A stretch of DNA of 61,712 nt, counting the filler, from Sphacelaria rigidula (lineage: Eukaryota), in the NCBI GenBank assembly GCA_964200075.2. It is 7 parts of 7 records of this genome, joined end to end, with 100 filler letters (N's around TTAATTAATTAA, not from the genome) between each part and the next. Parts side by side here need not be neighbours in the genome. Positions count along the whole stretch, not along the records: positions 17,663 to 26,392 come from CAXNAA020010247.1; 6 more parts are not named here. The stretch is one strand, 5' to 3'. Below, piece after piece: positions 110 through 44,152 of the stretch (position 1 is its first letter; each line of letters begins with the position of its first letter). A program made the translations under genes and the position numbers. The notes beneath the pieces are model-generated. The model was given only the letters and a program-made list of their open reading frames with translations, had not been told where the DNA came from and ran no database searches.

Positions 110-262
110 TTTACCACACGTGCGCCTGCTTCATGTCAAACACCAGACGATTCTTCAAGAAAATAGGAGAGTGCCGCTCACTCAGGAAACGAGCTGCCTT
201 AACAACGCCCGAACATGACCTTCTCGCAAAGCACCGCGACTGCGATTCACCAAGTCTTGCAG

Positions 263-408: not shown

Positions 409-445
409 GTATGTACGAGTATTACTTGGATGTTTTGAGCATCTT

Positions 446-656: not shown

Positions 657-862
657 TCGTCTACCTCCGCGACAAATGTCCTCTACTTTCCATTCCCGGT
701 ATCAGAATACAATCAGCAACACATTCCCCCAAGGCACGGCGACTGCATAACATGCATAAAGAACAAGATAGCGCAAGCCTTACGTATATATATATATATA
801 TATATAACGCCTCTCGACGTGATCCCCCCTTTGCATTGACATGACTCTACTACCGGCGGTAG

Positions 863-8731: not shown

Positions 8732-8831
8732 NNNNNNNNNNNNNNNNNNNNNNNNNNNNNNNNNNNNNNNNNNNNTTAATTAATTAANNNNNNNNNNNNN
8801 NNNNNNNNNNNNNNNNNNNNNNNNNNNNNNN
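8732..8831. other. Artificial contig linker
   Basis: N-run, TTAATTAATTAA, N-run; 100 bp. Confidence 0.98.
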
Positions 8832-9035: not shown

Positions 9036-11553
9036 TCATGAGTCATCTGCATCCCAAGCGGTGTCCGTGTTCCGTAGAACGGCTGTTTCGAGTTTGCCTT
9101 GGTCGTGTCGTTGGAGGCACCAGGATCCCCTCCGAGCGGTCGGCTCCTCCGTGTAGTAGGCATCATCCGAGCGAATCTTGAGGGGGCTCGGGTCATCAAG
9201 GAAACGGATAAAGTAGGAGTGGTCAGATGCAGGATCGACCAAATGAATTTTTCCCAACCCCCACAGTGAATCGAAAGCCTTATACCAAAAATACGCCCCT
9301 TTCGGCAATCGTTCTCCGTGGAAACACTGCATGTATTGTGAACGCGAAAGAAGGCTATATGCTGTCACAACAAACCGCGCTGAGTGTTCACGTGCCAGTT
9401 TCCGAGCGGCAGTTACGTTGTGCGTCGACCGATATCTCTTATTCAGCGGGCGGTGTTGGACGGTATCTCCTACCCAGTACAGCAATATTTCCCGACGAAA
9501 ATGACGCAAACCAACCTCACGCTCCCATGTAATACGCATGATACCCTTCCAATGTGTTTGATACATTACCGCTATCTTACCTTCACGACCGCGAACCAGT
9601 TGATGGCCCGGAATCCTATCTACCTCAACGCGTTTCAGGGGTGCGTCCGCATCCTCGACCGTCATATGATACGGCGGAGTTCTGATCGTATACTTGGTCA
9701 AAACATACTGGCTAAGCCCTACCGGCAGTTGTTTGGGCATGTCAGAGTTATGAAGGGGGATGCACGGTTTGCATCGTAGTTTCGAGACGCAATTTTTCGG
9801 TTTCAAACCAGGTTCATCCGTGCGAAAATCTAATTACAAAAGTTTCGCTCCCACCGACTCTTGTCGGGTGCGGTAGCGCTGGGATCAACAGCCAAAATTT
9901 CCCAAGGACCAGTCCAATTCAAGGATTGCTTCGCCTTCAACACTTTATCCAAAGATGATGATTTCGAGCTAGCCCCTTGATTGATGGTCTTCATATCGTT
10001 ATAAACCCATGCCCATTGGCCTACCTTCCACACCGGGCGGTTATGCACCACATCATCCAACATCGAGTTCGCCCTGGCCACCTTGGCCAAATTGATTTGG
10101 TTCTGTTCTCGTACCACTTCATATGCAAGACGAACACGATTGCTCACCGACAAATGATACTATACAACATCACGATCGAGACCCTGATGTCCGCCTGTAT
10201 TGTTGCTTCGAACACTGTCAAATGTAACCTAGGCATACGACCAATGACACTTTCTACGATAGCCCCCTCCCAAAACCAGTCCAAAAGTGTCACGAAAAAG
10301 ATGGCCATACAGCGCCTGATGATTCGGTTCAGACTGTATGAAGCGCCTCATATTGGCAACATTGGTGAGAACGAGCGCAAGCGCAGGAATTTTCAGCTGC
10401 TCGTTGTGCTCGGCTTTTCCCATTCCGATTCACGTGAAGATTTTGCCTCCCAAACCTATGTACTTTTTTTGGGGGGGGGGTATCGTAGAAAGTGTCCAAT
10501 ATATATTTCATTCGATGCCAATCCCGTAGCGGTATTGACTGAGTTGCTATAGTTCATTTGGACAAGGGGCAGATGGAGATCCCAATCCACCTGTCTCTCA
10601 TTCGCCACAGCAGCAAGCATCTGTGCAATCGTATGGTTCACTGGTTCCGTTCCACCATTAGTGGAAGGGTGATACGAACCAGTAAAAATGCGATGGGCGC
10701 CCAAAAGGTCACTGACTGCGGCCGAAAGTTTGCCTGAAAAATGCGGGCGGTTGTCGGACAGTAATCGTCTGGGCACACCCCACTGTGGGATGTACATGTA
10801 TACAAGAATGTTGGCGGTGCCTTCCGCGTTATAGCTGCAGGCAGGGACAGGGTGCATTACCGCATGTCGACTAATTCTATCTATAAACAAAATATACTTA
10901 TTACCATTATTCGTCAGGGGTAAAGGACCGAAATAGTCCCACGAGACTCCTTCACCAGGCCCGTTTGGGAGTGGTATGGAAACAATCGGCCAACGAACTC
11001 TTTGACGTGAAGTCTTGCGCGCTTGACACAAGAGACAACGCCGAACCCATCAACGAGTACACTGATCCGTTCGAATCCACCAATGAAAACGTTCAAGCAT
11101 CTGGGAGATCCTAATGGCGTCCAAATAAGTCGATGCCTGTGAATGGCATTCGTGTAGAACCCATGGGAGCAGGAGCATCGGGACATAAATTCGGTTGGGT
11201 TCATCACGTAGCAAGCGGGCATGTCGACTTGTAGGCTTCCCCCCGGGGAGGGTCGCTGTGGACCGGCGAACTAAAAGAACGACACCATCATCATCCGTAT
11301 GCAGCATACCTTTCCGAGAAAGTTCGGTAACTTCATCCTGTGTGGGGGCTTAAAGGTTCCCGACGGACAAAAGGAATTCGGTTTCTGAAAATGGACATGG
11401 GCAACCTTTGGATAGATAGTGGATAGCTGATTTACAAGCAGGTTCTGCCTGTTGTTCCCGGGTCCAATCGGCGTGGGAAGACAGGGTCAAACGTTCCTTG
11501 AATACGCCATCTGTTGAAGCGTCTACTTCGCGTTGGGTCGTGTCGGGGTGGGG
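9036..11553 (-). mobile_element. Decayed Ty3/Gypsy pol: integrase zinc finger, core domain and C-terminal region
   Basis: Frameshifted ORFs 11050-11307 (HECHS...), 10456-11031 (CQARK...DYFGPLP...LLSDN...YHPSTNGGTE), 9830-10153 (NWTGPWEI) and 9036-9806. Confidence 0.9.
10246..10496. mobile_element. MITE family G (GACACTTTCTACGATA TIRs), inserted in the Gypsy integrase
   Basis: TIRs followed inward by C/G runs. 4-bp TSD CAAT (10242-10245 and 10497-10500). Confidence 0.9.
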
Positions 11554-11558
11554 GTGAC

Positions 11559-11880
11559 TGTTAGAAAAGTGTCGCTATGACCCCTTTGACGTGATCTCTA
11601 GAGTTGGCGCAATGGCACTTAAGCCAAGCAAGCAGACAAGCTGCTTTGGAGTGTAGACAGAAGATGATGTTCAAGGTGCCTCTTGCGGGCAAGACAGTCC
11701 AAGCAACCCACCGTGTTGAACGGTCAACCGAGGAGAGTGGGAGCAACCCGACTATCAGCTACGCTCCACATCAGACCAACTATCGTGATCAGTACCGGCG
11801 ATCGACCTACTGCCCCCATACAAATACAATACCATACGAAGCGTTGGCGAGAGTAAGCCCCATAGTCTTATTTTCTAACA
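11559..11880 (-). repeat. Copia 3' LTR, preceded on the minus strand by a polypurine tract (11881-11890)
   Basis: TGTTAGAAAA...TTTTCTAACA termini. The adjacent CCCCCCCTCA reads TGAGGGGGGG on the minus strand. Confidence 0.95.
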
Positions 11881-12505
11881 CCCCCCCTCAACGCAAGTAC
11901 AAGTCTTACTCCCTCACACTCCCCCTCAATGCAAATCCACATTAGTTACAACCACCCAACTCAATACATCCGTCCCGGCACTCAAGGACGAAATAATAAA
12001 GGGTCCCACAGCCAGACGGAAGTCAGACTTTGGATGTGTTGATCAACTTGACGAGATGACAGTGCCTGTGCCTGCTGAGGTACTTGGTTCCTATGTCGGC
12101 GAGTTAGTCTTCAGTCTTAACGTGACGAATGTCGATCCTTCCCTCCTTGACTAATTCCTGGATAAAGAAGTACCGTAGAGCTATGTGCTTGACTCTCGAG
12201 CTGGAGTTTCGGTTGCCTGCGACGTGGAGAGATGAAGTGTTGTCGATGTAGACGGGGACGTAGTCGAAGCGTGTGCCAACTCCCATCTCCAGCATCATGT
12301 TCGAGCTAAATATGGCCTCCTTCATGGTGAGTGCAGTGGCCACGAGTTCTGCTTCCATGGTCGATTGCGCCGTCAATCTTTGTAGTCCTACCTTAAAACT
12401 GATGAAGCCATTCGAGCGAAATAGAAGATATGCTGATGTTGATTTCCCGCTGTCGGGGTTGTTGCCCCAGTTTGCCTCTGAAAAAGCCGTCAATCGGAAA
12501 CCACC

Positions 12506-12735
12506 CTGGTTGTAGGTGATGTCATGGTCCGTAATGCCGGCCAAATATCGAAGTAAGTGTTTTGCAGCTGTCACATGCGCCTTCGACGGTTTGGACATCG
12601 CCCGTGCCAGTTGATTCACGCTGGTTGTAGGTGATATCATGGTCCGTAATGCCGGCCGAATATCGAAGTAAGTGTTTTGCAGCTGCCACATGCGCCTTCG
12701 ACGGTTTGGACATCGCCCGTGCCAGTTGATTCACG
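12506..12735. repeat. 115-bp tandem duplication that frameshifts the Copia RT/RNase H junction
   Basis: Units start at 12506 and 12621 (CTGGTTGTAGGTGAT...GATTCACG). Confidence 0.9.
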
Positions 12736-13207
12736 CCGTATCCAATGTCGTAGCGGGTCACTCGAGCGAGATACATCCCACTGCCTGTGATGGCCTGGAA
12801 GCGCTGTTTGTCTTCCTCGTGGAGTATTTTGTCCCTCGGCTGGTCCAGTGATGGTGCTTGTCCCGCCGCAGGAGTGCACGCCGGGTTGCAGCTCGCTATC
12901 TCGTATCGTTCCTGGAGAGACTTCTTGTAATTTGTGTGGCTGGTGTTGGCTATCTTGCTATTACGGTCACGAACAGCCTCCATTCCCAGCACTAACGATA
13001 CATCTCCCATGCCCGTCATAAAAAAACGTCCCATTAGTTTATATTTGATTTTCTCCAGCACCTTGTTGTCAGTCTGCCACTGCTCCAGGTGTACCCCCCA
13101 ACTATTACCGACATAATGTGAATGCGCTGAATTTTGCAGATCGGAATAACTGACGCAACCGATCCCGGGGACTTGTTTCCAGCCCAGCACACCGACTCGA
13201 ACGTTGT

Positions 13208-13359
13208 AGCAGCAGCGGCAGCAGCGGTAGCAGTAGTAGTAGTCGTAGCTGTTGTTGTTAATGATGATGATAATGATGTTGATGTTGATGTTGTTGTTGA
13301 TGGTGTTGTTGTCGTTGTCGTTGTCGTTGTCGTTGCCGTTGCCGTTATTGTCGTTGTCG

Positions 13360-13406
<47 letters not shown>
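13208..13406. repeat. Compound trinucleotide microsatellite (GCA/GTA/GAT/GTC/GTT)
   Basis: Directly visible. Flanked by ACGTTGT at 13201-13207 and 13407-13413. Confidence 0.95.
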
Positions 13407-16400
13407 ACGTTGTGGACGAACGCCTTGGCCTCAATGACTCGAGGATGTCTTTGATCTGGTTTTCTTCCCTGCAGCATCTTGTGCGGACATTGCATTTGTA
13501 GCGCGGAGTGCGGTGCCCTGTTTGCAAGGTGGGATGTCCTGAGCATTGATTCGCCCAAGGGAAAGATCGGTAAACCGCTGTAGGCAAGCATGCACCGGGC
13601 CATGGCTACAAGCGTCCTCCCTACGCGCTCTGACAGGCCAATTCATTGTGGTGCATTGGTGCTCGCAAACTCTAGCAATATGCCTGTCTGCCGGCAGTAC
13701 GTTCTGAAATCGTTGCCAATAAACTCACCCGCTTTGTCTGCCCTGAGTCGTTCGAGCCGAACGCCGCCGGTCCCACCCATGGTCATGACCAGTTGCAAGG
13801 TGCGTTGCACTTTGTTGTTGACTGTCTTCGGATGGACTAGTTAGTGGCTTTTCCCAACAGCACGAATATTCCAGTCTGGGACAGATCCACCGAAGTCCAC
13901 CCCGTTACTTTCGACGGTTTTGAGAAGGTTCAAACTGTTGCTGTTCAAGTGCCTTATCCGCCGATGCCACAGCGTTGCGGCGTCTGCAGCTTGCATAGCC
14001 AGTCCAGGCGCGTCGTTGCCGCTGCTTACTTCTAGAGAAAAAAAGTACAGGTCACTCTCCAGATCCTGCAGCGGAACGGTAAAGTTGTCTGTCTCCAGTC
14101 TTAGGTTGTTTATTTCGAAAACAGACACAACTACGTTGCGCGTCGCTTGCTTGACGGAGAACAGATTCCGTCCCAAGCCAGGGACGACCAAACACGAAAT
14201 CTGGACCAGGCGTTTGATCCCTTCGTCATCTTTGGTGTGTCCGTGGAGCAGTCCACTACCAACCCCTGCCAGTTGGTGCCCCCCTGCGATGGTGATCTTA
14301 CGCGGGATCGCCAGTTCCTGGTCGTTGTACAGTTTGTGGCGCAGCCCCGGGATGAGGGTATCGTCGAAGTAATGTCCCGACGCGCCACTGTCGACCATGA
14401 CACTGACAGAGCTGACAGGGCTATTGCTGCCCTCTTTCCACTTGCCGACAGCGGGTCCCGCCGCGAGAGCCGACCCATCATCAGCGTCGGTGATACCGGC
14501 AAATGTTTCAGCATTGTCGTCGGAGTGCGATGTGGCTCGGTGGTATAATGAGTTCCGAAATATCAACCAGAGGTAATGAACCACGGCTATTATGGCCAGC
14601 GCGCGGACTATTGGGGAAAGTTCCCCCTTGATTCACCCAAATATGTTGTGAGCCCTGCGCCGGAACTCCAGACCCCCGGCCTCCTCGGTCCCGTCCGTCC
14701 CTTCGAAGGCACCGAAACGTCCACTGCTGTCAAATGAAGCAACAGGTTTGTTTGTTGGAGCAAACGGCCAAAGGTTGTCCGCTTCCCGGGGATCTTGTGT
14801 TCTGGGCGCTTGTAAGGCATTGCAGGAAATGGCCGGGGTCTGCTCCCTTGCATCGGTGACTGGTGGGTAACCTGACCATTGCGCGAGATTTTGCTGCCTG
14901 CTGATTGTTTGCTGCCTCCTGGTTGCGCCGTTGCAAGAAACGGCACTCTTCGTCGCTGTGGGTTGTTGACATGTGGAAGAAGCACCACTTGCCTTCTGTT
15001 CCCTTGTTGTCTCCCCCTGTCAGTGCTTGGGCCGCGTTTCGAGCAGGGCAATTTCTTTTAACGTGGCCTCGCTTTCCGCAGATGAAACATGTTATGTGGT
15101 TTCTTCTACTACCACCACTTCCACTGACCTGCATGGCAACCCCGCGGCCTGCGACCAAGTTGATGGCATCTGGATGAGAGAGATAATCGGTATACATGGT
15201 GCTGACCATGTATCGGAGATCCGCCAAATTAAAATCACGCCTCTCGCAGCTAGCAACACGAACCCTTTCGTACTCGGCAGGCAGGACTCGGAGGATAATG
15301 TCCTCGTACCGCTCATCGGGCATACCTTGTCCCATTTCATCTAGGCGATCACAGTAGCCGTCCATGACAAACAGGAAGTCTTCCGGATCATCTCCGGACT
15401 GCATCGTTGTGCTGTGGAGTTTGTCGTGGAACTCTCTTCGTGCCTCTTTGCTGTTGCCGTCAAATTTGTTGTGCAGCGCTGCCCACGCTGCTTGTCCATT
15501 CCCAATCCCATCCTGTGGGGTTTTCCCCACATGGCATCCAATTTTTGCTGATTTTTCCGTGCTAAAAAACAGAATACTAAACAGACCATCGCTTGCACGA
15601 TCCCACGCCACAAAATTTGTCGTATCACAGGGTGGTTAGCCATCATTGATTACGGTGGGCCTGGGTCTTTGCCGCCCCTGCAGGGTTTCTGCTGCCGCAC
15701 TGTGGTGAAGGGACAGGATCACCCGGAGTTTATCTTTGAATTCCCGGAAACTCGCTTCGTCTCGGCCATCAAACTTTGGACAGGTTTCAGAACCCTGGAA
15801 TACCCTCAATGCCCGCCATATGAATCCTGTTCGTTGCTGTGCTCCAACGTCACGAGTAAATATAAAGGGTGTTCAAGTATAGGTCCCCCACCACACAATC
15901 GGCTTGCTCACCGCCGCTTGAGTTGTCGGTAGCGCAAAAACAAATGTGTGCAGACGAGCAACAATCGGAAAGGTCCCCCACCGCCGCAGCGTCCTCCGGA
16001 GTTGCCGCTTGACGTTGATATCTGGGCACTTCTGGCTGGACAGGATATTGATGTACAGGATGTTGTCTTTGGCGCAGCGGCTGTGCACTTCAAAAATAGA
16101 CGCTTACATTTTTACCCCCAACAGAATCCGACTACTGACTGTTTCCCCAGGTCAGCCGTGATGTAGGGCGCGCTGTTGTCGATTCACCCTCCCAACGTAA
16201 ATCACACACTCTACTCGGTTCGGGTTGTGGTCTCCTGCTGTAGCGCCAGACGAGAACAGATGCGTGCTGTCGTTGTTGCAGGGTTACTACCGTACCGTAT
16301 TCTACGATTGTCCCGCTTTTTCAAAATCACGTATATTATCAGGTGCGCACAGAAACGTGCCGTCCTCACTTCGTGACACACTGTCGCAGTGCCAGTGCCA

Positions 16401-16536
16401 GATCCACACAGGTGTAGTGCCATCTTTACTTTGACTCAACTCACGTTGTTCTCCAGCAAAGATCCTTCCTTTTTGCTGGTGTCTTCCTCATTCCAAAGTT
16501 CGCTCCGTACACGCCAGCGACGAGGCTCAATGAACC

Positions 16537-16858
16537 TGTTAGAAAAGTGTCGCTATGACCCCTTTGACGTGATCTCTAGAGTTGGCGCAATGGCACTTAA
16601 GCCAAGCAAGCAGACAAGCTGCTTTGGAGTGTAGACAGAAGATGATGTTCAAGGTGCCTCTTGCGGGCAAGACAGTCCAAACAACCCGTCGTGTTGAACG
16701 GTCAACCGAGGAGAGTGGGAGCAACCCGACTATCTGCTACCCTCCATATCGGACCAACTATCGTGAGCAGTATCGGCGATCGACCTACTGCCCCCATACA
16801 AATACAATACCATACGAAGCGTTGGCGAGAGTAAGCCCCATAGTCTTAGTTTCCACCA
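16537..16858 (-). repeat. Copia 5' LTR, followed on the minus strand by a putative PBS GGTTCATTGAGCC (16524-16536)
   Basis: 322 bp, with 12 differences from the other LTR by manual comparison. Confidence 0.93.
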
Positions 16859-17512: not shown

Positions 17513-17562
17513 GGGGTGTACTCATGATCATGCCTGCCATAGTCATCAGACCATTGACCTCG
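17513..17562 (-). mobile_element. C-tailed LINE 3' end, subfamily 2, cut by the contig end
   Basis: GGGGTGTACTCATGATCATGC... matches 39042-39100. Confidence 0.75.
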
Positions 17563-17662
17563 NNNNNNNNNNNNNNNNNNNNNNNNNNNNNNNNNNNNNN
17601 NNNNNNTTAATTAATTAANNNNNNNNNNNNNNNNNNNNNNNNNNNNNNNNNNNNNNNNNNNN
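17563..17662. other. Artificial contig linker
   Basis: N-run, TTAATTAATTAA, N-run. Confidence 0.98.
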
Positions 17663-17674
17663 TTTCACTTTTTT

Positions 17675-17759
17675 GGGGGGAGGGGAGGGGGGGCGTACTC
17701 ATTTGTTGCTTGCTTTAGTCGTTCGACCATTGACCACGCATCCCTTTCGAGACGGAGCA
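17675..17759 (-). mobile_element. C-tailed LINE 3' fragment inserted in the G-run of a MITE family G TIR
   Basis: G-run, then CGTACTC...GACGGAGCA, then a second G-run, then ATCGTAGAAAGTGTC (ends 17796). Confidence 0.85.
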
Positions 17760-18159
17760 TGTTGGGGGGGGAGGGGGGGACATCGTAGAAAGTGTCGTTG
17801 GTGTAATTTCGTGGACGATGATGCGCATGCGCATGTGTTACATATATCGACGCCGAATGATCCGCTTTTCCTCTGAGGATTCGGAGCTCTGGTAAAGAAA
17901 TATCATATTTTGGAACATGTAATGACTTTTCCAGGTCTTGCCAAGGTACCCCTCCTTACTTTCCCCAAGTCAAGCACGCTGTCTCGACCTTGCTGAGAGA
18001 GAGACAACAACAAAAATGGAAATCAGAACCCAACAAAATACCATATTTTCCAGCCAGCATACACTAAACAAAAGTCACACACCAAAGAAGAAGTCTCACA
18101 CTAAAGAAAAAAACGGACCTACCAAGTAGAGAAGGTCAGCCTTGCGTCCCCTCTGATCT

Positions 18160-18896
18160 CGAACTCACTACCTGATCTTGACTTTATTTCTCGTCCTCCT
18201 GCATCACTCGCGTCGCTTTCTCTAAACGCACCTTTGTCCCCCGTTCCCACGTGTTGGTAATACCCACCGATATGCCATGCGTCTTCCTCCTTGCCCTCTC
18301 CACTTTGTACCGCATCTATCCCATCTCGGATACCTTCGCCGTCCCGATATGCTTCCACACCAACATGCTGGCACATCGGTGTCATCTGTGTCCGTCTTTC
18401 CGCCATCGCCGTTTTATTATTTACCTTCTGCATTAACCCTTGCATTCCCAGATTCAAACACGTTTCCTCCTGATTCTGCATCTGTCTGCTCAAGCCGAAC
18501 ACGTCTTACTCTTCTACCGCGCTTCCTGCGTCTCCTCCCACGCCTCATCAACCTCCTCCGAGGTCTCTGTCGCCTCCTCTCGCGTCCCCTCTTCCCAAAC
18601 CTTCACCCCTTCCTTACTGCCATACGATTCAGTTTTCTGCTTGAACCGTATGCGTCCGCCACTCGATCACTGTAGAAATGTTTGTTTCTTTTTAGTATTG
18701 TGCTTGTTTTGCTCGTTTCTGCTTTCGATCTATACTCCGTTCTGCATTTTTTTTTTTTTGCCTTTTTGCCTCATCTTTAATCAGCCAGCATTTCCGTTTT
18801 GTCAACCTTGGGCACGTCTACCTTATGGATAATGACCGCACCTGACTGAGTCCCTCGGGGATCAGTTAATGTGCGAACATAAGACAATAAAATAAT
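18160..18896 (+). mobile_element. Probable LINE 3' fragment with T-rich 3' UTR and short AAT-rich tail
   Basis: The 3' end TTGGGCACGTCTAC...GATCAGTTAATGTGCGA resembles 36500-36560. The upstream sequence is decayed and coding-like. Confidence 0.5.
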
Positions 18897-19099
18897 TGTT
18901 TTGGGTAGCGCGACCTTCCGTGCCTGCACCGCGTCTTTCCATACCTACTTCTATTCTTTGCGCCATCTTCCACACCTGCATCACCACCGTATCCCACGTC
19001 TCCTCCTCCTCCTCCTCCTTTTCCTCCTCCTTCTCTACTGCGAGAAAGGGGGTCGTGTCTTCGTTTGTTGGATCTTCTGCCCCGCAAATCATGCTCATG

Positions 19100-19860
19100 T
19101 GCACAGATAAAACTAGGCCTATCGACCTCCCCATGTCTCTTGTTTTTTGGTTTGCTGAATAGTGGGGAACTGCGCTCTTTTTGCCAGGCTTATGGATTTG
19201 AACGGCTCGCTGCGCTCTTGTCGCTACACGATAAAAACAACAAGTCGAACGATATCAGGTCTGAGCCATGGGACTCTGACTCATTCGTCGATGACCCGTA
19301 CAGCAGTGAGATTTGCTTGAAAACCTCTAGCTACCTCACCGTACCCTGCCAGGACGTTGATTTCGTTGTAGTCGCTCGTCGTCAGTCAGTCCGCCGTCCC
19401 TGATTTTCCCCGAGTTCCCATCCAGATGATTGAATTGAGTAATCCCCTAGTTCCGAAATGAACCATCAGTGCGAACTACTGAATACACGCGCAATTTCCT
19501 CCCCGAAAGTTCGTAGCAGGCGGTATGGTCCAGCCCAAATATTCCTTGTTCCTCTTGGACACTCAGCTCTCTTTTGCACAGCAGTGATCTAGTAGCACGA
19601 ATGGTCGCTTGCGGCATCGAAACTTACTTACGTGGCTAGCAGATTTTTTGTTTCCTTTTCCTTTTTCTTCATCTTCTTTTTCATTTTTTTCTTTTTTTCT
19701 CTTGTATCGCGTATGTGTGAGTTTTTCTGGTTCCGATGTTATTCTTGACTTTATTTTACCCTATATTGGGGTAGTTAGCCTGTGACCACGGAAGGCGTCC
19801 GCATCAGATGCCCAGTACACGGTACTGCGCAAATATCGGAACGGTTTTAAATGTGAAGGC

Positions 19861-19892
<32 letters not shown>

Positions 19893-19910
19893 AAACGACA
19901 ACAACAACAA
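19100..19910 (+). mobile_element. Probable retroposon 3' fragment ending in (AAC)n
   Basis: The last ~60 nt before the tail match the reverse complement of 42172-42240. The 5' boundary is approximate. Confidence 0.55.
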
Positions 19911-20979
19911 GTGAGGTCACTTTTCTAGCTTTTGTCCAATCACACTCACCAGAATACATATCTTGATCCTAGCTGGATGCGAGACTCTTAGGATCGCGTC
20001 AATCTGGCCTATCTGTGCCTTACTTTTTTTTACAGATAAGCCATCTATGCGTGCATCCCAAGCACGGTTCTTCGTGATCTCTACGACAAGGTATGTATGC
20101 TGGTCTACGATCGGCAATTCATCTTCTCCCCACTTCTATTTCAACGGTATCGGGTATTCCTTTCCTTCGTCACATACACTTAACACGCATTTGTTCACGT
20201 TCGTTGTCACTCTCCATTTCCTAGTGTAATTTTGCGTCTTTTCTATTGTTTCTGCGATCCTTCCAGTGTTTCTGATATCCCCACGAAATCCGCTACGAAC
20301 ATTAATCGTTGCCGTATCTTCGGTTACTTGACTCCTTGCTTTGCTGCTCCTGCTGCTACTACCAGCTATTAATCAATACCTTGAATGAGGTGGGTGTTAA
20401 CGTACATCCTTGTGCAACTCCGTGCAAGATATCCGATATTTCCCCAGCTGGCATCACAACACTTTTTTCGCATTCCTTCATTTTTTTCACCACTCTCCAC
20501 ATTTTCCTCTGATCTTGGCTTCCCACATTTTTTCCCACAGCCCATCCCTCCATACTGTGTCATAGGCCTTCTATAGGCCGAGAAAAAATGGCCTGTTGTT
20601 AGCCCCGCGTGTTTCCTACCTTGCAAAATCTTAACTAATGTGTACGCATGGTCCACGCAGCTACGGTGTACGTAGTCTGAACACTGTTTGCCCCGCGCTG
20701 GTTTTCTTCCTCCTCCAGTATTGTTCTCACTTCATCGTTCAAAATCTTACGGGATGTTTTCCCTACGGCGCTAAGAAATAAATGTTATCCCTCTATCATT
20801 GGCCGGGTAAGCCTCGTCTCCTTTCTTTAAAATGTTTACTACTACTCCTTCTCTCTACTTCTTGGGTATGCACTCGTTTGTCCAGATCCAATCATACAAC
20901 AAAATCGTTATGGGGATCATTCCCTCTCCCCCGCACCTCATAATTTCATTCACTATTTGGTCTGCCCGTGCTGCCGTTC

Positions 20980-22872
20980 CATTGCTAATATCAGGCCATT
21001 GATTAAAATCTGACAGCAATACAAGCAGCAAACCAGGAGTCAAGATGAGGGAAGATACGGTATCGAGATTGATGTTTGCAGATCACGTCGTGGGGTTGTC
21101 AGAAGCAATAGAAGGATTTCACGAGCAAGTAGAGAAGGCGCTAGAATACGCCAGGGAGTGGAGCGTGACAGCTAATGTAAACAACTGTTCGGTACTTGTA
21201 GCCACGAAGATAAGGAAAACCCGGTATAGTTTAGATGGAAATGGGGAGGAGGGGAACTACCGATCGTAGACCAGAGTACATCCCTTGGCGTAGGGATATC
21301 GAAAAGGTGTTTTTGGGATGCACACAACTATGAAATAATTGAAAAGAAAAAGATCCAGATAGGCAGGATCGACGTGATCCTACGAGATTCACACCTAGAT
21401 ACTAGGATTGAGAGATATATTCTGATGAGTGTGACTGTATCAAAGCTGGAATATGCAAAAGAAGTATGGGAGGGGAACGCGAAGTTGGTGAAAAAGCTGG
21501 AAACAGTTCAGATGGCAGCAGCTAGAACAATAATTGGATGCTCAAAAGCGACGAGTGATAACAGCCGATCATCGAAATTGAGGATGGAGCTTTTCATTGA
21601 GTATGAGAACCCGGAAGGTTAAAATCTTCGCACCCACACGAAATCTTCGGAATATGCTTCCATTCTTCCACCTACTAGTAGCTATTGACAAGTACTACGT
21701 CATACAAATTGTGACTTCGATAACCGAAATGTTAGGGTCCTAGGTGAAAAACCAATTTCGGAGAATTTCGGCGATCCGGTCGGATCGCCTATATTCCCCA
21801 ATATTTTTCTTCATCTAGGACCCCAACATTTCGGTTGTCGAAATCCAATTTTGTATGACGTGTAGTACTTGTCAATAGCTACCAGTAGGGGAAGGAATGG
21901 AACCATATTCCGAATATTTGGTGAGGATACGAAGATTTTGATTCTCCGGGTTCTCACCTTCAATGAAAAGCTTCATCCTCAATTTCGATGATATGCTGTT
22001 TAATACAGTATTGAGGCCAAAGTTGAGATTGTACCCACTTGAAACAATAGAGACATGAGAAAACTGAAATTTCAATATAGCGCAAGGAGCATGCCTAGAA
22101 AGAGAGCGCCAGGCACAGTTGATAGGGCTGCATGGAAGAAAGTGACGAAATAGTACACTGGAATAAGCTGGGATAGCGTAGTCGAGAAAGTGTGCAACGT
22201 AATAGGAGAAAACAAAGACGAGATAAAGTCGGTAGGTGAGTGTAGCGGATAAAATATGAAAGTAAGTTTCATTATAGATATAATAAGGGGGAAAGAAGTC
22301 ACGACACAGAAATCAGGTAAGGAAAAACACCTAAAGATATACGGGGGGTTTCAAGAGGAGATAGTGATGAAAACATATCTGCATGGCCAAATGGGCTCGG
22401 TGAAAAATTGAAACTGTGTTTTCGGGTGGGAGACCTGGATCTTCCAGAAAGAAGGAAAAGGTGCACCAGTAGTCTAGTGTCGGTGGAAATAGATGCACAA
22501 AATTGCCCCTGTGGCAAATAGAGGGTATAACTCATACAGTAGCAGATTGTGAACTAAACAAGGAGGAACGGGACGCGCTGGAGAGGGAAATGTGGAAAGT
22601 AAACGGAGGTGGCATGATCTCGTTTGATACATTAGACAGTAGGGAGAAAACGACCGCTATACTATGAGGTAGATGGTAGTCACAGATGGCGAATCAGAAA
22701 GGAGATAAGATATGTTAAAGTTTTTCGTGTAAGATCCATCCAAATGTTGGAGGCGTCTCCATCAGGAGTAGGAACGGTGCTCCGTCTCGCAAGGGGTGCG
22801 TGTTCAATGGTGAAACGACTAAGGCAATCAACAAAGGAGCACGCCCTCTCCCCCCCCCCCCGCCGCCGCCCC
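20980..22872 (+). mobile_element. 5'-truncated LINE copy with C-rich tail and 15-bp TSD
   Basis: RT C-half (LMFADHVVG, KLEYAKEVW), tail CCCTCTCCCCCCCCCCCCGCCGCCGCCCC. TSD CCCGTGCTGCCGTTC (20965-20979) / CCCCTGCTGCCTTTC (22873-22887). Confidence 0.9.
21560..22000. mobile_element. 441-bp foldback MITE inserted in the LINE
   Basis: Palindromic along its whole length, centre GCGATCCGGTCGGATCGC. Flanks TGAT/TAAT fit a 4-bp TSD. Confidence 0.9.
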
Positions 22873-23411
22873 CCCCTGCTGCCTTTCTGTTCTTGAGTTT
22901 AGCTACAAATCCATTCATTTCCTCTCTTCTGATCTCTCTCTGCAAGTATTTTGAATCACTATCTACCATTCTTGATGCCTCTACATTTGCCTCTGCCTAC
23001 GCGTCAGTTTCTCTCTCGAATTCCGCGTTGAACCTTCCGTTAGTTGTTGGTGTTCCTAGTTTCGGTAGTACTATACTGGTTCTTTTCCCTCCCCCTTCGA
23101 ACTACGAACCACATGACAGTTCTGTGCTCTTCGTGTGGCTATTCCCTTTTCTTCCTATCCGGCCTGTTCGCCCAGTATCCCTTTTATCCCTACCCACATT
23201 TGCTTCATCCTGCCATCAAAGCCTTCGTTTTATTTATTCACGATCTCTTTCCATATTCTATTTGCTTCTTTACCATCTTGTTACCTATTTTCTATCTTTG
23301 GCATACCTCTCCCACGCTGCCGTAGTCGTACTCGATATATATCTTGCGTGGGCCTTCCTCCTTACTCTTGTAGCCTCTTTCACTCCTTCATCCCTCCCCT
23401 TTACTGTCTGT

Positions 23412-23425
23412 AAGTACGCCCCCCC
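23412..23425 (+). mobile_element. 14-nt ultra-truncated insertion of the C-tailed LINE
   Basis: AAGTACGCCCCCCC lies between perfect 16-bp repeats CCCCTTTACTGTCTGT (23396-23411 and 23426-23441). Confidence 0.85.
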
Positions 23426-25427
23426 CCCCTTTACTGTCTGTTGCATACGATCATTTTCTTCCCCATGACCTTACTTGCTGTGGTCATGACGAAGCGCTCA
23501 CATCCTTCTACAACCTTCGCTCCTGTCCTATTCCTGTCTCTTCCGGCATTAGCAATACCTACGCTTTCAAACAACGTCACTGTATTTTTGGTTATCGTTT
23601 CTTGAAACTCTTTCTGCCCTTTTTGCATTTCTAGTTTTTATATTCCTCCTTTGTACAACTCCTTACCCCGCCTGTTATTTATAACCCTCGTCTGTTGACT
23701 ATCTATCCATAGTAGACAATGATCCGTAGTTCCTACGTCCACTGCGCGTGAGTGTACTCCCGTTTCCTAACTGCTTCCATATTATATAACTGAATAGTCA
23801 AGAATGGAATCTTAACCCCTTCGTATGCTTTGTCTAGTTCATTGCGGATCTGCCCTTTATACTCTATTGTCTAACGTCTTCATATCATATTCTCAACGAA
23901 CTTCCACGTGTCTACCCCATCTGTCTTATTCGTTTCTCTGTACCGCCCAACATCATCATTCGGTTGCCTTGCTTTTCCAGTCCTCGCCTTGAAACCTAAC
24001 ACGAAAATGCCTTTTTTTGTTCGCCTTTCATACATACGTGCATCTGCTACCATCTCCCCGAACTTCCTTTGTATATATTTTGCTGTGCCCTCCGACCCTG
24101 GGGGCATATAAATGTTTCCTAATGAAAAATATTCCGTTCTTCGCTCCCCTAGTACCCAGATCCATATTCCCTCGTCAAATCCATGTCTTCGATCACTTCT
24201 ATTTTGTCACACAGGTATTCCTTCACCAAGAATCCTACTCCCTCCGCTCCCCTATTCTTGTGTTTGTGTCCAATCGCTCCTTCCCTATCCATGCGTACTC
24301 TCCAACTTTGTTAAACGGTACAACCCTACTTCCTCGCATCTCCTCTTGAACTCAATTCTCGTCATATCGCAAGTGAATCTAAACACTATTAGCACTAGAA
24401 TTTTCATGGGTCCGATCCTGAGTTCTCTATTTACCCTTCTTTACCGTCTCTTTCTCGATCTCTTTCGAGATTATCTAAAGCACGTTCGTTTTGAACGTTG
24501 CAGTGGGACATAATAAAGGTACAATTTGATTTTTTTATAAAGATACTCGAATATGCCAATCCTGGTAGTAGGGGGGCATTCGGTCACGACCGCCTTGCGA
24601 GGTTCAAAATAGGGTACCCCTGACGTGGTTTTAAGCTCATGTCCTCGGCCGAACGGAGGGAAATATCATATTTTCGGCCGTGGTCGAAGCATGCCCCGAC
24701 AGCTGAGACGTTGTCCTGCATCATCTCGCCGCCTTATTTTTTTTCGTTTCGACTTACTTCTGCGTTTTTTTCGTTTCCTTTTGTTCGGAACAAATTTTCG
24801 AACGTAAAATCTTCATCCGAACACAAATCTGGCTCGTTCAGCCTCTCTGAGCGCGATTTTATCTAGCAGATTAAGATTTCGGACACCAGGCCCTCGGAGA
24901 ATGGTTTTCGGGGTAAGGAACTCAAATCAATTATCCGATTCTCTGGACCTTGACTTTTAGTACTTCACCTTTCTGCTCAAGTTGAGACAACACCGAATAG
25001 GTGTGTATATAACACAGATCTGCGGCCAATACCTGTTCGTCCTACACAAACATTTCTGACTTTCATCAGCTTGAGCAATATTGGAGATACCAAAATACAA
25101 TGTGCAGATAATCTGCAGGTTTTGTCGTTTTCTCACAGCTAGACAGAAAACGTTGCCAAGCGGGCTGGTGTCCGAAAACATAATCCATGGGACAAAATCC
25201 CCTTCAGAGAGACTGAAATCCTCAGATTTGTACGAACGCTCATCTGCCCCCGTAAATACTGGTCTTAGACCCCGGCTTATCGAAAAAAAAAAATGGCAAT
25301 GTGATCATGATGATGTGAGAACGATATGATGGTTCATAACCTCATAATCAGTAGAAATATCCCGCCTTTCCTGTCGAGGGCAAGACAAAACTACGACGAG
25401 AATGTGATGACGTGACAACACGCGAGC

Positions 25428-25739
25428 AGACTAGAGATTTCCAGCAGGATGGCAATCATACGCAAGGTGCGTCGGCATTGTCGCATGGTCGGATTGCGGA
25501 CCGTCTCTGGCATGAGGAGAAGCAGCAGCAGCAGCAGCAGCAGCAGCATTGTCGACACCGGATGATTCAGCCCCACCTCCAATCGTACACAACTGGAGGT
25601 GGTAGTGCAGCTGCTGCTGCTGCTGCTGGCGCACCTGCTGCTACTTCTTTTCCACGTGCGAGAGACGGTCCGCGTTCCAACCGTGCGACAATGCCGATGT
25701 ACCTTGCGCGTGATCGCCACCCTGCTGGGGATCTCTGTC
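25428..25739. repeat. About 310-bp inverted repeat with (CAG)n and (CTG)n in opposite arms
   Basis: AGAGATTTCCAGCAGG...CCTGCTGGGGATCTCT, with inner stem CCACCTCCA/TGGAGGTGG. Confidence 0.88.
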
Positions 25740-26336
25740 CGTACTACCCGCCGATGGATCCATGCTTGCTGTTCACTGGGCGCGTTTCTCTTTCCATCTC
25801 AGGTGCGCGGTTCTGTGTGGTCGTGATCCGAACAGTCCACGCGTGGCAACCATTTTACGTTGCCTTTCGCACTCTCATCGGCATGTTTCTCCGTGCTCAC
25901 AACAAGAATGATTTCAAGGGCGTGAGAACCGAACATCAACCCTCCATCAATCATAGGGACGAGTTAAATTTGAATCGTCTTAATCATAGTTGGTTGAATG
26001 TTCATTACTTTTTTCCCGATAAGACGAGGCCTTCGTCCATCTCTTATGATTCAGGGTGTGAAAATGTCGATTTGAATATTTCCTCAAATTTTCTATCGGC
26101 CGAGATGGCAAGTTTTCTGATGACTTCTTGCCGGTGTGTACGCAGCCAGCATTCCTGCAGCCCGCAACTCCCCCCACTCGGCGACAATTGAAGTCACATA
26201 TTTCACATAATTTACCGACCCACTTACTGGAGCAGCGCCTCAAGTCCCGTGGCTCGGCTTTGCGTGTGGTCGCCATGATGCTTGAGGAATATCCAGCCAT
26301 CATTATGCGAGCGAGTTGGCTTCGATCGTTGCCGTT

Positions 26337-26392
26337 GGGGGGGGAGGGGCGTACTCATTTGTTGCTTGCCTTAGTCGTTCGACCATTGACCA
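26337..26392 (-). mobile_element. C-tailed LINE 3' end, cut by the contig end
   Basis: G-run followed by CGTACTCATTTGTTGCTTGCCTTAGTCG. Confidence 0.85.
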
Positions 26393-26492
26393 NNNNNNNN
26401 NNNNNNNNNNNNNNNNNNNNNNNNNNNNNNNNNNNNTTAATTAATTAANNNNNNNNNNNNNNNNNNNNNNNNNNNNNNNNNNNNNNNNNNNN
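26393..26492. other. Artificial contig linker
   Basis: N-run, TTAATTAATTAA, N-run. Confidence 0.98.
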
Positions 26493-27261: not shown

Positions 27262-27809
27262 CACACCTTGAATCCCTCCCCTCCCTTGGGACGAGTCTGT
27301 GGTCTCAAGGGATCAGCCCTTCTCTCCCCGGTGCACGCCTTGCATATTGATCTTGCGGATTGGCTCAGCACTCTCGCACCGTGTCGACTCTCATCAATCA
27401 AACCCAGTCAGCAACTTCTTGTCTACTCACGCACACCCTCTTTCGATGGTGATAAATCAGGTACTTGAAAAAAAATGACATGAGACACTTTCTACGATAG
27501 CCCGCCCCCAAACCAGCCCAAAAGTGTCACAAAAAAATGGCCATACAGCGCCTGATGCTTGGGTTCAGGCCGTATGAAGCGCCTCATATTGGCAATATTG
27601 GCTGAAACGAACCCAAGCGTGGGAATTCCCAGCTGTTCGTTGTGCTCGGCGTTTCCCATTTCGATTTATGTGAAGACTTTGCCTTCCAAAACCATGCACG
27701 TTTTGGGGGGGGGCTATAGTAGAAAGTGTTATGATCCTACCAGGAATCGAACCCACCATCTATTCACCCTTAAGCTTTTTGTCTACCCATAAGACCACCG
27801 GGGCGCGGC
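27262..27809 (-). mobile_element. tRNA-headed SINE family B, interrupted by a MITE
   Basis: Minus-strand A-box-like GGTGGTCTTATGG and B box GGTTCGATTCC. The body is shared with 43843-43960, 47233-47570 and 47805-48030. Confidence 0.7.
27484..27730. mobile_element. MITE family G, copy 2
   Basis: Homologous to 10246-10496. 4-bp TSD ATGA. Confidence 0.9.
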
Positions 27810-35112: not shown

Positions 35113-35222
35113 GACACTTTCTACGATAGCCCCCCCCCCAAAAGTGCATAATTTTGTGAGGCGAAATCTTCACGTAAATCGAAAGGGGGAAAGCCGAGCG
35201 CAACGAGAAGCTGGGAATTCCC
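35113..35222. mobile_element. MITE family G, partial copy at the contig end
   Basis: GACACTTTCTACGATAGCCCCCCCCCC plus internal homology to the other copies. Confidence 0.85.
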
Positions 35223-35322
35223 NNNNNNNNNNNNNNNNNNNNNNNNNNNNNNNNNNNNNNNNNNNNTTAATTAATTAANNNNNNNNNNNNNNNNNNNNNN
35301 NNNNNNNNNNNNNNNNNNNNNN
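35223..35322. other. Artificial contig linker
   Basis: N-run, TTAATTAATTAA, N-run. Confidence 0.98.
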
Positions 35323-36575: not shown

Positions 36576-36859
36576 TGAAAAATCTTTGAGGGGGGGTGCT
36601 ATCGCGGCACCAGTCGTCACTGAATCGATGTACACGAGACGAAGTCTTCGGTCGTGCGGAGTACGCGCTGAGTACATGAGCAGGTTTGACGTTCGCACTG
36701 TCTCATTCAGAAATTACGCATTAACCGGATAGCTCTCGTACTCAGTAAGAGGCGATTAACGGACCTGATGCCGGTAGCTGGCGTGCGAACGCGCAAGAGG
36801 AGACGAGATTCCTCTATTTACACAATCTCGACACCTTTCAGTTGACGTGCCCAATGGAT

Positions 36860-37500
36860 GCCAGTTGACACCGTCAACGTTTTTGGTTCGAACAAACTTC
36901 GACATGGATAAAACATCCAGGTTAAGGAATAGAACTGTGGTTCCGGGGTTTCACGAGTTGGACGCCGGAGCCGGCAAGGCAGCACCGGTTCCTCCTTCTC
37001 CAGAGGCTGCTCGCATGGTTATCGCCAACGCGGAAAAGATTCAGTTCACGACTGTTAGCTTTACGACGTCGTTTCTCCTTACACTCGGGTTTGTTTCCAG
37101 CACTTCCGACGCTTGTGTTTACAAAATGGACGATGGGGGCGTCATTCTTTGAATTTACGAAGACTAAAAGAAGAGGCAGTGACAAGGCGAGAAAAGCTGA
37201 AAGGATCGTCTACGAGTTCAATAGGTTTCAGATATAGTCGACCTCGGTGACGCCAAATTTTCACTTATTGGTACTCGCTTGGTACGCAAATAATTCAAGA
37301 CGACGCCGATCCGTCTCACTTTACGCAAGAGACACGAAACATTTCCATTCAGCTACCGGCGCTTGATCGACTCAAACAGATGCCGAAGATCCGATATGAC
37401 ACACGCGGTCATGGTGCTGACGGGACTGACGAAGGGCATTCCAAGACAAGACCGGATGCCATACGACTAGAGCGAGTGATGAGGTACCTGAATGGAGACA
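36860..37500 (+). mobile_element. Highly decayed Copia-type RT remnant
   Basis: Fragments LGFVSSTSDACVY, DLGDAKF and ERVMRYLNG in the expected order. Confidence 0.55.
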
Positions 37501-37770
37501 AATCTAAACTCATTAGAAGACAGAAGATCTGAGAAAAAATCTTTGAAGGACTTGAGAATTGCACACTCAAACCTCGCCCCCACCCATCTCCGCACCATCC
37601 TTCCTCGCGAAGCACCATACGATTCATACACTCGTTGCAAGACTATCACCTCACACACACACCCCTCTCTGCCCACACTTACATCAGGATGTGGATGTTT
37701 CGCACATTGGTTCAAGTGATGACTTTTCAAAAGCCACCACAACTTCATCCCCATCCCGTCACAAGTAACT

Positions 37771-38583: not shown

Positions 38584-41170
38584 TCACAAGAACGGAGGCA
38601 TGATTTCGAAAGCTTCAGAGCAAGCATATACGGAGTCATCCCCGAACACTCCCACGCGGATCTTGTACATCCCGGATTCAGTTACACTTGGTATCACCAC
38701 GTCGTAGTCTCCCTCTGATTGGCGCACGTCATGGGCACAACGGAAGTGGAGAGGGCGGAGAGCGGGCGACAGGGGTCAACATACATTCCATATTCCACGA
38801 CAAGAACAAGACCAAACGAATACCACAATGCTTTGCAATACTCAGTCAAGCTAAACGCATTCATCTGCACCGCCAATTTGCGTCGAATGTGCGTCGCATC
38901 TTGTGGTCGCAGATAGGGCCAACAATTATGGGCGCTACCTCACCCAAGTCGCCCCCAAACGGTTATTTATTTAGTGTTTCTAAATGTGAAATAAAAATCC
39001 TACAATCGCCGGGGCGGGCGGGGGAGGAGGGTGGGGGGGGGTGTACTCATGATCATGCATGCCGTAGTCAGAAGACCATTGACCTCGCATCCCTACGGGT
39101 GGGGGGGGGGGGGCGAAGACATAGAGCCTCGGATGTTTTTTGGGGCATCCGTGGGTGATACGGGAAGTTTTCAAAACCATTTGAAGGTAACCTAGTGCAG
39201 TACTACTTGAAGGTACTCACGGGTGTCCCTGCAGCCGATGTCGGGCCTGTCGCAGATAGAGCCGACCCACTGACCGCAGTCCCCTTGCAAGGGGCTCTCC
39301 ACAGATGCTTGAAAGTAGAGATCGATCTTGAAGCGTCCCGTCTCACCTCCGAGTCCGTTAGAATAGTCGAACTGATATAGGCGAAAGCAAGCAGGCAGGT
39401 GGACGGAGCAAGAAACGAGGGCATGGAAGCAGCCTGGTGAGGGGAAATAAATATGGAAAATAACAGGATATAATAATAGACGGCAGACGAAAACGCGGGC
39501 AAAGACACAACGAAAGTCAAAACGAAACCGGTCGTGGGCGCAGTATGCCCATTGTAGCAGTCATCACGCAAGACGCCTCACCTGAACCGTGTACTCCTCC
39601 CCAGAAACCCCCACGTCGTCCGCCGCCGGAGAAAGAATGTCGATCGACGGTATTCCTGCTTCGCCAAGCTCCGCGACGTCTGCGGATGCCATCAGATAAA
39701 AATCGTCGGAGCACCGAACTCTGGCCTGGCCCCCGACTTCCGCAATTCGTACCCTGTAGCCGTTGCTCGAAACCCCAACCAACGGCTCTGGCATGACCAC
39801 CTCGTAGCCCCCGTGCGTGTCCTGTGCACATCCCTCGGCCTCAGGGCACAACGGGTCTAGGAGGAAGCCACAGTTATCCTGTGTGTATGGACGGTTTGGG
39901 GGTGTACATGGGGTGGGTCGTTAAAAAAACTCCCGCCTTGCACCATGATCCGGCAATTTCACCGTATCCCAGCTACATAAGCCTACACGATCAAGGGCGA
40001 ACCACATGGTGACTGCTAGTGACCCATGGTATGTGGATAGCTAGAAGCAGCACGCGGAGTTTCACACGCAGAAATCAGGTGCAGTGGCCGGGAAAGTTGT
40101 TCTGCTAGATTTCGGTTACTGACTGGTCAGCGAGTTATTCTGGCGGCGCACGGCCCAGAACTATCATGGACCGCGACGTTTTGGTGACTGTGTCAATTCT
40201 GGCCACTTACTACTCGTGAACAGTTTACAGGAGCCTCTCTTTTTTCAACACACGAGACTTACGACCTCAGAACATACCACATTCGAGAACACTCACATCG
40301 AAGCAGAAGGAGTAAGAGCCACAGTACGTCAGGTCGATATCGAACCGCGCGTCAGCTGCAACCCCATTCCACTCCACCTGATATGACCTGCGAAGAACCG
40401 GAAGACACGAACGTGGTGAAAACATGTCAAATCTGCTGTCCGTTGTGGACATGTAAGTGATTCGCCAAAGGATTGACAAACTACTTTACATGACCTTGGC
40501 TGGCCAAGATGTTGGGGATTCCCCGCAATATCGCCATCCGCAGCCCACTTTCCCGAAACCTTATTTCAATGATTTCCCCCGCCGACAACTGTTTTATTTT
40601 AGCCCATGAAAATCCTACTCGTAATCGTGGCGTGCTCACATATTCCAAGTGTTTTTCGGATAAAACTGGATGAAAAAACAAACCAAACTTAAAAATACCT
40701 CGTACAACCTTCCCATGTATGGTGCGACTCGTCTTTTCTTCATGCACGAGTGTAGGGGCACTCAAATGACGCGCACAATCTAGCCAAGGCTGCAAGGGCG
40801 ACTACTCGATGGACAGATGTAGCAGGTGCAGCTCCCATCCACTGTACACTTGCATAGATGGTAACCGCGCCATTATACTGCACTCAGCTGTCGTACACCA
40901 CGTACTTTGCGTACCGTGGCCGTACCCTCATTACAAGGAGCAGGGGGCAAAGACGGACGCACCGACCGGTACAATGTACGAGGTAGCTCCTACTGTTTTA
41001 CCGCTCATGTGATGGAATGTCGGTACAAGACTACAGTAGTATAATAGTTAGTTGTGGGGTAGCTCTCACCTTCCAGCCACCGTGGTCATGCCTTCGGAAG
41101 GCGCAATAACATCAAGAGCCTGAGCGGAAGTAGCGAGCAGTACCAGGGTTGCCACGGTAGAGAAGCTCAT
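38584..41170 (-). CDS. Secreted 256-aa protein with two tandem cysteine-containing beta-rich repeats; exons 41170-41070, 40387-40297, 39878-39582, 39371-39221, 38714-38584
   Basis: Complete ATG-to-TGA frame (771 nt), all GT-AG. Signal peptide MSFSTVATLVLLATSAQA. The repeats align: YQVEW/YTVQF, RFDIDL/RFKIDL, DNCG..LC..GC/GDCG..IC..GC, GYEVVMP/DYDVVIP, GYRVRI/MYKIRV, CSDDF/CSEAF. Confidence 0.9.
39011..39113 (-). mobile_element. C-tailed LINE 3' fragment, subfamily 2, in an intron with G-runs on both sides
   Basis: Element body at 39042-39100. The reverse complement ends ATGAGTACACCCCCCCCC. Confidence 0.8.
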
Positions 41171-44052: not shown

Positions 44053-44152
44053 NNNNNNNNNNNNNNNNNNNNNNNNNNNNNNNNNNNNNNNNNNNNTTAA
44101 TTAATTAANNNNNNNNNNNNNNNNNNNNNNNNNNNNNNNNNNNNNNNNNNNN
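44053..44152. other. Artificial contig linker
   Basis: N-run, TTAATTAATTAA, N-run. Confidence 0.98.

Follow-up and report, generated by a model that had tools for sequence, protein, structure and literature searches.

How a run of eleven Cs, six bases of a LINE 3' end and a perfect 16-nt direct repeat came to lie together inside an old transposon copy is the question raised by positions 23396–23441 of a 61,712-nt stretch of Sphacelaria rigidula DNA (assembly GCA_964200075.2), which was analysed at its full length and is here called the window. The window consists of seven pieces of 8730–8731 nt joined by N44-TTAATTAATTAA-N44, and the locus lies in piece 3 (17663–26392). It is eukaryotic and transposon-rich, with a Copia element in piece 2 whose ORF has its closest named relatives among brown algae, in Sphacelaria (77%), followed by Ascophyllum and Ectocarpus, and a search of the window against Rfam returned no match.

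Structure of the locus and its unoccupied state

The locus had been described, in a sequence-only reading, as a 14-nt insert flanked by a perfect 16-bp TSD, and re-reading of the sequence shows this structure to be exact:

23396–23411, + strand: 5' copy of the TSD, 16 nt, led by CCCC (CCCCTTTACTGTCTGT), with a single-copy homologue in three of three external LINE copies
23412–23418, + strand: inserted bases AAGTACG, an unmatched A followed by the six bases (AGTACG) that precede the tail in the LINE
23419–23425, + strand: inserted C tail, seven Cs if the TSD takes four Cs (external copies, C8–C13)
23426–23441, + strand: 3' copy of the TSD (CCCCTTTACTGTCTGT)

The whole C run at the locus spans 23419–23429 (11 C), and the boundary between tail and TSD is ambiguous within it, the TSD measuring 12 nt without any C from the run and 16 nt with four. 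The direct repeat reaches 20 nt with one mismatch, and CCCCTTTACTGTCTGT, searched with up to two mismatches permitted, has two matches in the window (0.03 expected), both at this locus. The insert yields a 14-nt, 100% match to window positions 96–109, the 3' end of a LINE family. Only six of its bases are element-specific, the A at 23412 being a mismatch to the G of the element. The proposed identity of the insert with the last bases of the LINE holds for AGTACG+Cn, which is the 3' terminus of the LINE and with which the termini of external copies agree. Furthermore, AGTACG+C7 stands directly before the 3' copy of the TSD, and the intact LINE 3' end is thus oriented with its tail against the TSD.

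The 30 bases by which the locus exceeds its unoccupied form lie antisense within a host that is itself an older, degenerate copy of the same LINE, the two segments of which are parted by a nested copy on the + strand:

22877–24522, − strand: host LINE copy, amino acids 36–755 of the external ORF (blastn to the external copies L050 and L098, tblastn)
19923–20989, − strand: continuation of the host LINE, amino acids 749–1107, RT region (blastn, tblastn)
21020–22876, + strand: nested 5'-truncated LINE copy, ~1.4 kb, amino acids 965–1426 (blastn, tblastn)
20965–20988 and 22873–22896, + strand: left (CCC-led) and right copies of the TSD of the nested copy, 17 of 24 positions identical, ~19–24 bp

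The host copy shows ~68–73% nucleotide identity to its external relatives, its ORFs give no Pfam match to RT or EN domains, and no host paralogues were found elsewhere in the window. The site is covered by three external copies, L050, L098, and L165, and all of them present one 16-mer region that passes directly into TGCATA, with no insert, and contigs of same-species paralogues likewise read through a single copy (six from run X1 and two from run X5 at 23437, and one from run X5 at 23384). A single 16-mer region and no insert is what the sequence-only reading had anticipated for the LINE consensus. Because relatives and paralogue contigs have one copy and no insert, the duplication and the insert are, on this comparison, private to this host copy. 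The site itself reads CCCC in the window versus CCAT in the three relatives and the same-species paralogues, and both TSD copies share the CCCC change, along with a one-base deletion that only the host copy has. It follows that the C4 site predates the duplication, and the earlier statement that four Cs have become eleven is borne out as the passage from a C4 site to a C11 run. The difference between CCCC and CCAT would in turn imply two substitutions before insertion, which is plausible in a degenerate host copy.

A structure built on a homopolymer could in principle reflect chance resemblance or an assembly artefact, given that homopolymers are prone to error and that LINE tails or C/G runs contain 8 of the 14 piece ends of the window, an indication that the assembly breaks at such places. 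To set the locus against chance, perfect, non-microsatellite direct repeats of at least 12 nt with a spacing of 1–60 nt were counted in the window and in 200 dinucleotide-preserving shuffles. The window contains six such repeats, compared with a shuffle mean of 0.195 (n = 200), and one of at least 16 nt, compared with none in any of the 200 shuffles. The search outlined in the sequence-only reading, for AGTAC[GA]C4+ between two copies of a C-led 8–20-mer, was run on the 61.7-kb window and returned this locus alone, on the + strand, with no match on the − strand. In a non-window control made up of 165 fetched loci from other collections (579,706 bases), AGTAC[GA]C4+ sites occur 37 times, including 34 instances of AGTACG-C8+ in unrelated viral contigs, and a flanking 8–20-mer repeat is present at none of the 37. 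The shuffled-control comparison that had been put forward as a means of refutation thus leaves the pattern standing. With regard to assembly, contigs built independently from public runs, one of which may be the assembly's own source, bridge the locus in run X1 (23192–23466, 0 differences), run X4 (23241–23485, 0 differences), and run X3, from a second study (23192–23488, 1 difference), while no bridging contig is listed at the locus for run X5. The insert is carried by all three bridging runs (X1, X3, and X4; two studies), with no empty allele among them. The structure of the locus is not due to chance, because none of the 200 shuffles gave a 16-nt close repeat, and it is not an assembly artefact, because contigs from three runs bridge it. 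Set against the controls and the agreement of three runs in two studies to within 0–1 differences, an origin in chance or assembly is extremely improbable.

The C-tailed LINE and its insertions

The repeat ending in ...GAGTACG+Cn is present in seven copies in the window, including two of a GAGTACA subfamily. The copies are located as follows:

1–109, + strand: family reference 3' end, cut by the window start and ending in GAGTACG+C8, 93–94% identical to L050, L098, and L165
22745–22861, + strand: LINE-tail repeat copy
58932–59007, − strand: LINE-tail repeat copy
26342–26392, − strand: LINE-tail repeat copy
17513–17562, − strand: GAGTACA-subfamily repeat copy
17687–17779, − strand: ~75-nt 5'-truncated LINE copy (repeat part, 17687–17758) with C-rich TSD CCCCCTCCCC
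39034–39113, − strand: ~55-nt 5'-truncated GAGTACA-subfamily copy (repeat part, 39034–39094) with C-rich TSD of 11–13 nt

A motif taken from the core of the repeat was used to look for external copies in public contigs. The full LINE tail was recovered in at least three of the 120 listed metagenome loci (L050, L098, and L069), the remaining blastn matches among these listed loci being motif-sized (21–42 nt), and a scan of genome contigs with the tail-core motif gave one match, L165, in a contig filed in a bacterial MAG. In all four loci the 3' end is 93–94% identical to the window repeat. L098 carries an intact 1426-aa ORF (119–4399, − strand) with Pfam matches to Exo_endo_phos (E = 6.7e-13) and RVT_1 (E = 1.1e-30), and L050 an intact 1253-aa ORF with the same two domains; the external copy is at least 5.0 kb long, and the named protein closest to the external ORF is from Ectocarpus, with 60% identity and a homologous C-terminal motif. 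Viral loci were also considered, and none of the 34 with the AGTACG-C8 word shows a match to the tail family at E ≤ 1e-2. The 10 viral loci with the tail-core motif contain no LINE tail, and three of them give motif-sized matches of at most 24 nt.

The external copies define the terminus of the element. They end in ...TGAGTACG followed by C9, C8, and C13, and in one copy in TGACTACG+C11, with the C tail placed directly after GAGTACG in L050, L098, and L165 and after GACTACG in L069, and with unrelated flanks beyond. The stop codon of the ORF is the TGA in ...AAATGAGTACG, which leaves a 3' UTR of 5 nt before the C8–C13 tail, and the conserved 3' 60–110 nt of the LINE are coding. The LINE copies in the window are 5'-truncated and degenerate, and show homology to the external ORF by tblastn. 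The Pfam scan of the window, which covered 24 ORFs of at least 130 aa, all 119 ORFs of at least 45 aa in piece 3, and 144 of 175 ORFs of at least 85 aa in the other six pieces (the 31 omitted being mostly the shortest together with long Copia-region ORFs already scanned), produced no LINE RT or EN match among the scanned ORFs, the only matches being Copia domains, a kinase fragment, and DUF4471. Judged by the external ORFs and termini, the element behind the insert is identified as an APE-type LINE with a C tail and a single EN-RT ORF.

Other insertions of the family show how it meets its targets. The nested LINE copy lies ~0.5 kb upstream of the stub at 23396–23441, inserted into the host LINE copy; it is interrupted at 21557–22000 and ends in a degenerate C tail (22850–22876). 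Its site is unoccupied in relatives, where it reads GTCTG-CCCC-TGCTGCC, so the first base of the nested copy's TSD coincides with the start of a C4 run. The ~75-nt copy has landed within the C run of another repeat family, three paralogues of which are uninterrupted, at 10471–10480 (−), 27705–27713 (−), and 35130–35139 (+). For the two short copies (~75 and ~55 nt) the C-rich TSDs are CCCCCTCCCC and CCCCCCCACCC, respectively. Among the insertions in the window with recognisable TSDs, the stub included, four of four have TSDs of ~10–24 bp that are C-led or C-rich, a pattern that would be expected for TPRT in which a G-ended nick pairs with a C tail. The stub had been singled out as the cleanest single piece of evidence for this mechanism, which is not clearly so, the nested 1.4-kb copy and the 75-nt copy being equally clean.

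Origin of the stub

The C-tail-primed and early-aborted reverse transcription proposed in the sequence-only reading is well supported by the terminus of the LINE, the unoccupied relatives, the C-led or C-rich TSDs of the family, and the controls described above. On these grounds, the locus very probably arose when a (C)n-tailed APE-endonuclease LINE inserted with extreme 5' truncation, and endonuclease-dependent TPRT would have ended after six bases. In such an event, the endonuclease would nick the bottom strand at the position that on the top strand lies immediately 5' of CCCC, and the exposed G residues would pair with the C tail of the RNA and prime cDNA synthesis. Synthesis, or engagement of the template, would then stop after six element bases, the 5' junction would gain one unmatched base, and the duplication would arise from fill-in after a second nick at a distance of 16 bp, with the conversion of a C4 site into C11 as the net outcome. 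The tail of the stub, ~7 C, is close to the C8–C13 of the external copies. Either the LINE's own RNA or a non-autonomous RNA with a common 3' end may have served as template, two options that six bases cannot separate. If this reading is correct, the stub would constitute a natural record of the first nucleotides of TPRT by a LINE whose tail is of C instead of A. Nick position (immediately 5' of CCCC), 16-bp stagger, and length of tail used (~7 C) would all be fixed by one event, with junctions that are unobscured by an element body.

The same TSD and tail would also be left if a longer 5'-truncated LINE had been inserted by TPRT and a later deletion had removed all but its last six bases. The unmatched A at 23412 could then be the first base of the longer insert, and the host and neighbouring copies are old and rearranged. 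Such a deletion, however, would need to start within one base of the junction between TSD and element, and no remnant of additional element sequence is present. Moreover, the TSD of the stub is identical at 16 of 16 positions, as opposed to 17 of 24 in the older nested copy, which indicates little time for decay. Sequence cannot distinguish truncation at integration from later deletion; on the balance of these observations, the deletion is considered very unlikely.

A different account would involve the repair of a staggered break, in which fill-in creates the duplication and the filler is templated from LINE-tail DNA or cDNA elsewhere, for instance through endonuclease-independent capture or end joining by polymerase theta. 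Elsewhere in the window, short duplications enclose unrelated filler, one at 6772 (14 nt, gap 27) and one at 53719 (13 nt, gap 16), and the genome therefore does make such scars. At the stub, by contrast, the filler reproduces the 3' terminus of the LINE exactly, its tail has a normal length, the C run of the TSD abuts that tail, and both the length and the C-led start of the TSD are those seen in genuine family members. Insertions that bypass the endonuclease usually have neither TSDs nor an intact 3' end. Nor is the nearest LINE tail the template: the tail of the nested copy reads GAGCACGCCCTCTC, unlike the insert of the stub, which has the family-consensus terminus, and local copying from this neighbouring tail is ruled out because the two differ. 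Repair of a staggered break is hence very unlikely to have produced the locus.

Known LINEs and C/G homopolymers

In mammalian L1, insertions are 5'-truncated, TSDs are A-led, and poly(A) tails seed A-rich microsatellites. The insertion proposed here would resemble those of L1 in that the tail pairs with the nicked target, the TSD begins with the base of the tail, 5' truncation is variable, and a homopolymer is lengthened. It would differ in the use of C for A, in a tail that follows a 5-nt 3' UTR instead of a polyadenylated UTR, and in leaving only six bases of the element. Among LINEs with other tails, UnaL2 of the eel is a tail-dependent, "stringent" LINE with a short repeat tail and a 3' stem-loop, and very short 3' UTRs are found in the RTE clade. 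Like these, the Sphacelaria element has a tail other than A, a very short 3' UTR, and a conserved 3' end in common with non-autonomous partners; it departs from them in its homopolymer C tail and in its conserved 3' 60–110 nt, which are coding.

The closest described counterparts are the RTE-X elements of Ectocarpus. RTEX-1_Ec32 (5867 bp) is listed with "single EN-RT ORF; (C)n 3'" and a "C-rich" TSD, RTEX-2_Ec32 with "(C)n termini/TSD", and the non-autonomous RTEX-N1/N2 with a 3' 60–100 bp in common with RTEX; the remaining LINEs listed for Ectocarpus end in (CAA)n or (CA)n, (C)n being given for RTE-X only (PMC12477816). A single EN-RT ORF, a (C)n 3' end, and C-rich TSDs are the RTE-X features found in the present element, which is most likely of the RTE-X kind and is set beside RTEX_Ec32 by description, not by sequence. 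The Ectocarpus RTE-X elements and this LINE also agree in that their copies are often 5'-truncated and that short non-autonomous families have the 3' end in common with them, and the consensus length of 5.5–5.9 kb of the former may be compared with the at least 5.0 kb of the external copy. Relative to those elements, this LINE is a diverged family in another species. Stub-sized insertions, an exact target motif, and a link to genomic homopolymers are all absent from the Ectocarpus RTE-X table (PMC12477816). As far as that table goes, a C-tailed LINE and its insertion behaviour are already annotated in Ectocarpus, and the stub is a tidy example and not a new mechanism. A limited literature search returned no description of stub-sized C-tailed LINE insertions or of homopolymer genesis from them; for poly-C-tailed LINEs, and for LINE insertions that are abortive or extremely truncated, PMC12477816 was the only specific source it returned. 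A poly-C run is also mentioned in PMC9942856, where it is part of the TIR of a DNA transposon.

C/G homopolymers are abundant in the window, which contains 100 C8 words as against 1.78 expected and 33 C runs of at least seven. Ten of the 33 runs are tails of this LINE family or their TSD partners, three belong to a second repeat with a ...CGATAG-Cn junction, and one ends a ~945-nt element with a 12-nt TSD, so that 14 abut recognisable C-tailed repeat ends or TSDs and 19 are without recognisable origin. The contribution of C-tailed elements to many C/G tracts is supported by these counts. The sequence-only reading went further, in suggesting that aborted events would seed homopolymers across the genome. 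In its broad form, with abortive or near-abortive TPRT by (C)n-tailed RTE-X as a major and self-reinforcing source of G/C homopolymers in brown algae, this is a tentative and rather doubtful proposition, for which the lengthening of C4 to C11 at the stub and the presence of a LINE copy within the C run of another repeat may be counted as support. Each strike on a short C run would lengthen the run and thereby offer a better primer-pairing target for the next, in which case LINE activity would have left many "anonymous" C/G tracts as footprints devoid of element sequence. If stubs are common, they would explain part of the C/G homopolymer excess and of the assembly breaks at such tracts, and failed retrotransposition attempts could be counted from sequence alone. 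Among the 33 C runs, only one is associated with a stub of less than 50 nt, that at 23396–23441. For the annotation of transposable elements, the use of the stub is practical and changes no concept: it is an insertion that repeat maskers will miss.

The coding 3′ end of the LINE

The last 60–110 nt of the LINE are both conserved and coding, as seen in two metagenome copies (L098:106-330(-) and L050), in the contig copy L165 and in proteins P0001–P0004. This stretch encodes a C-terminal motif, ...APSRK..VVNG.T.KA, that is also carried by Ectocarpus proteins, and the C tail begins 5 nt past the stop codon, so that, judging from the sequence, the protein C-terminus and the 3′ recognition sequence of the LINE would overlap. 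L165, where the algal LINE shows both sequence homologous to EN/RT and a C13 tail, is filed among the genome contigs under the MAG of an uncultured bacterium, and is almost certainly eukaryotic contamination in a bacterial bin.

Other C-tailed or possibly C-tailed elements in the window

A second repeat family in the window presents a conserved junction, ...CTTTCTACGATAG-C9-10-AAAAGTGCATA..., and may be a non-autonomous, C-tailed element repeated in tandem, an arrangement comparable to that of RTEX-N1, a non-autonomous RTE-X partner of Ectocarpus, which "can be present in tandem". The 75-nt, 5′-truncated LINE insertion landed within the C run of one copy of this family. A further C-tailed, retroposon-like insertion, of about 945 nt, ends in ...CGATAGCA-C7, a terminus that differs from that of the LINE, and is bounded on both sides by a perfect 12-nt direct repeat reading TCAAAGATTTTT.

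C-tailed or possibly C-tailed elements other than the LINE
10471-10480 (-), second-family junction
27705-27713 (-), second-family junction
35130-35139 (+), second-family junction
17764-17779 (-), second-family junction
36590-37546 (-), C-tailed element of ~945 nt

Other transposons and a probable host gene

The nested LINE copy is broken at a single point of the element alignment by a 444-nt insertion whose inverted arms, 139 nt each (21560-21698 and 21862-22000), are 86% complementary, and which looks like a MITE-type element. The LTRs of a Copia-type retrotransposon, 300 nt in length, are 97% identical, and the closest named relative of this element is from Sphacelaria. Three ORF fragments align one after another along the DUF4471 (PF14740) profile, and probably belong to an intron-containing host gene.

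Further elements and probable gene
21557-22000, 444-nt insertion with inverted arms
11558-16835 (-), Copia-type LTR retrotransposon with LTRs and fragments of gag, zinc knuckle, integrase and RT
47028-50827 (-), DUF4471 region

Make-up of the window

The window comprises seven equal pieces of 8730–8731 nt, linked by N44-TTAATTAATTAA-N44, and is therefore not contiguous DNA. LINE tails or C/G runs lie at eight of the 14 piece ends.

Linkers
8732-8831
17563-17662
26393-26492
35223-35322
44053-44152
52883-52982

Piece 1 holds an internal short run of telomere-like TTAGGG-variant repeats (2290-2337). Two further short, perfect direct duplications, one of 14 nt with a 27-nt gap (6772-6826) and one of 13 nt with a 16-nt gap (53719-53760), enclose filler unrelated to the LINE in either case.
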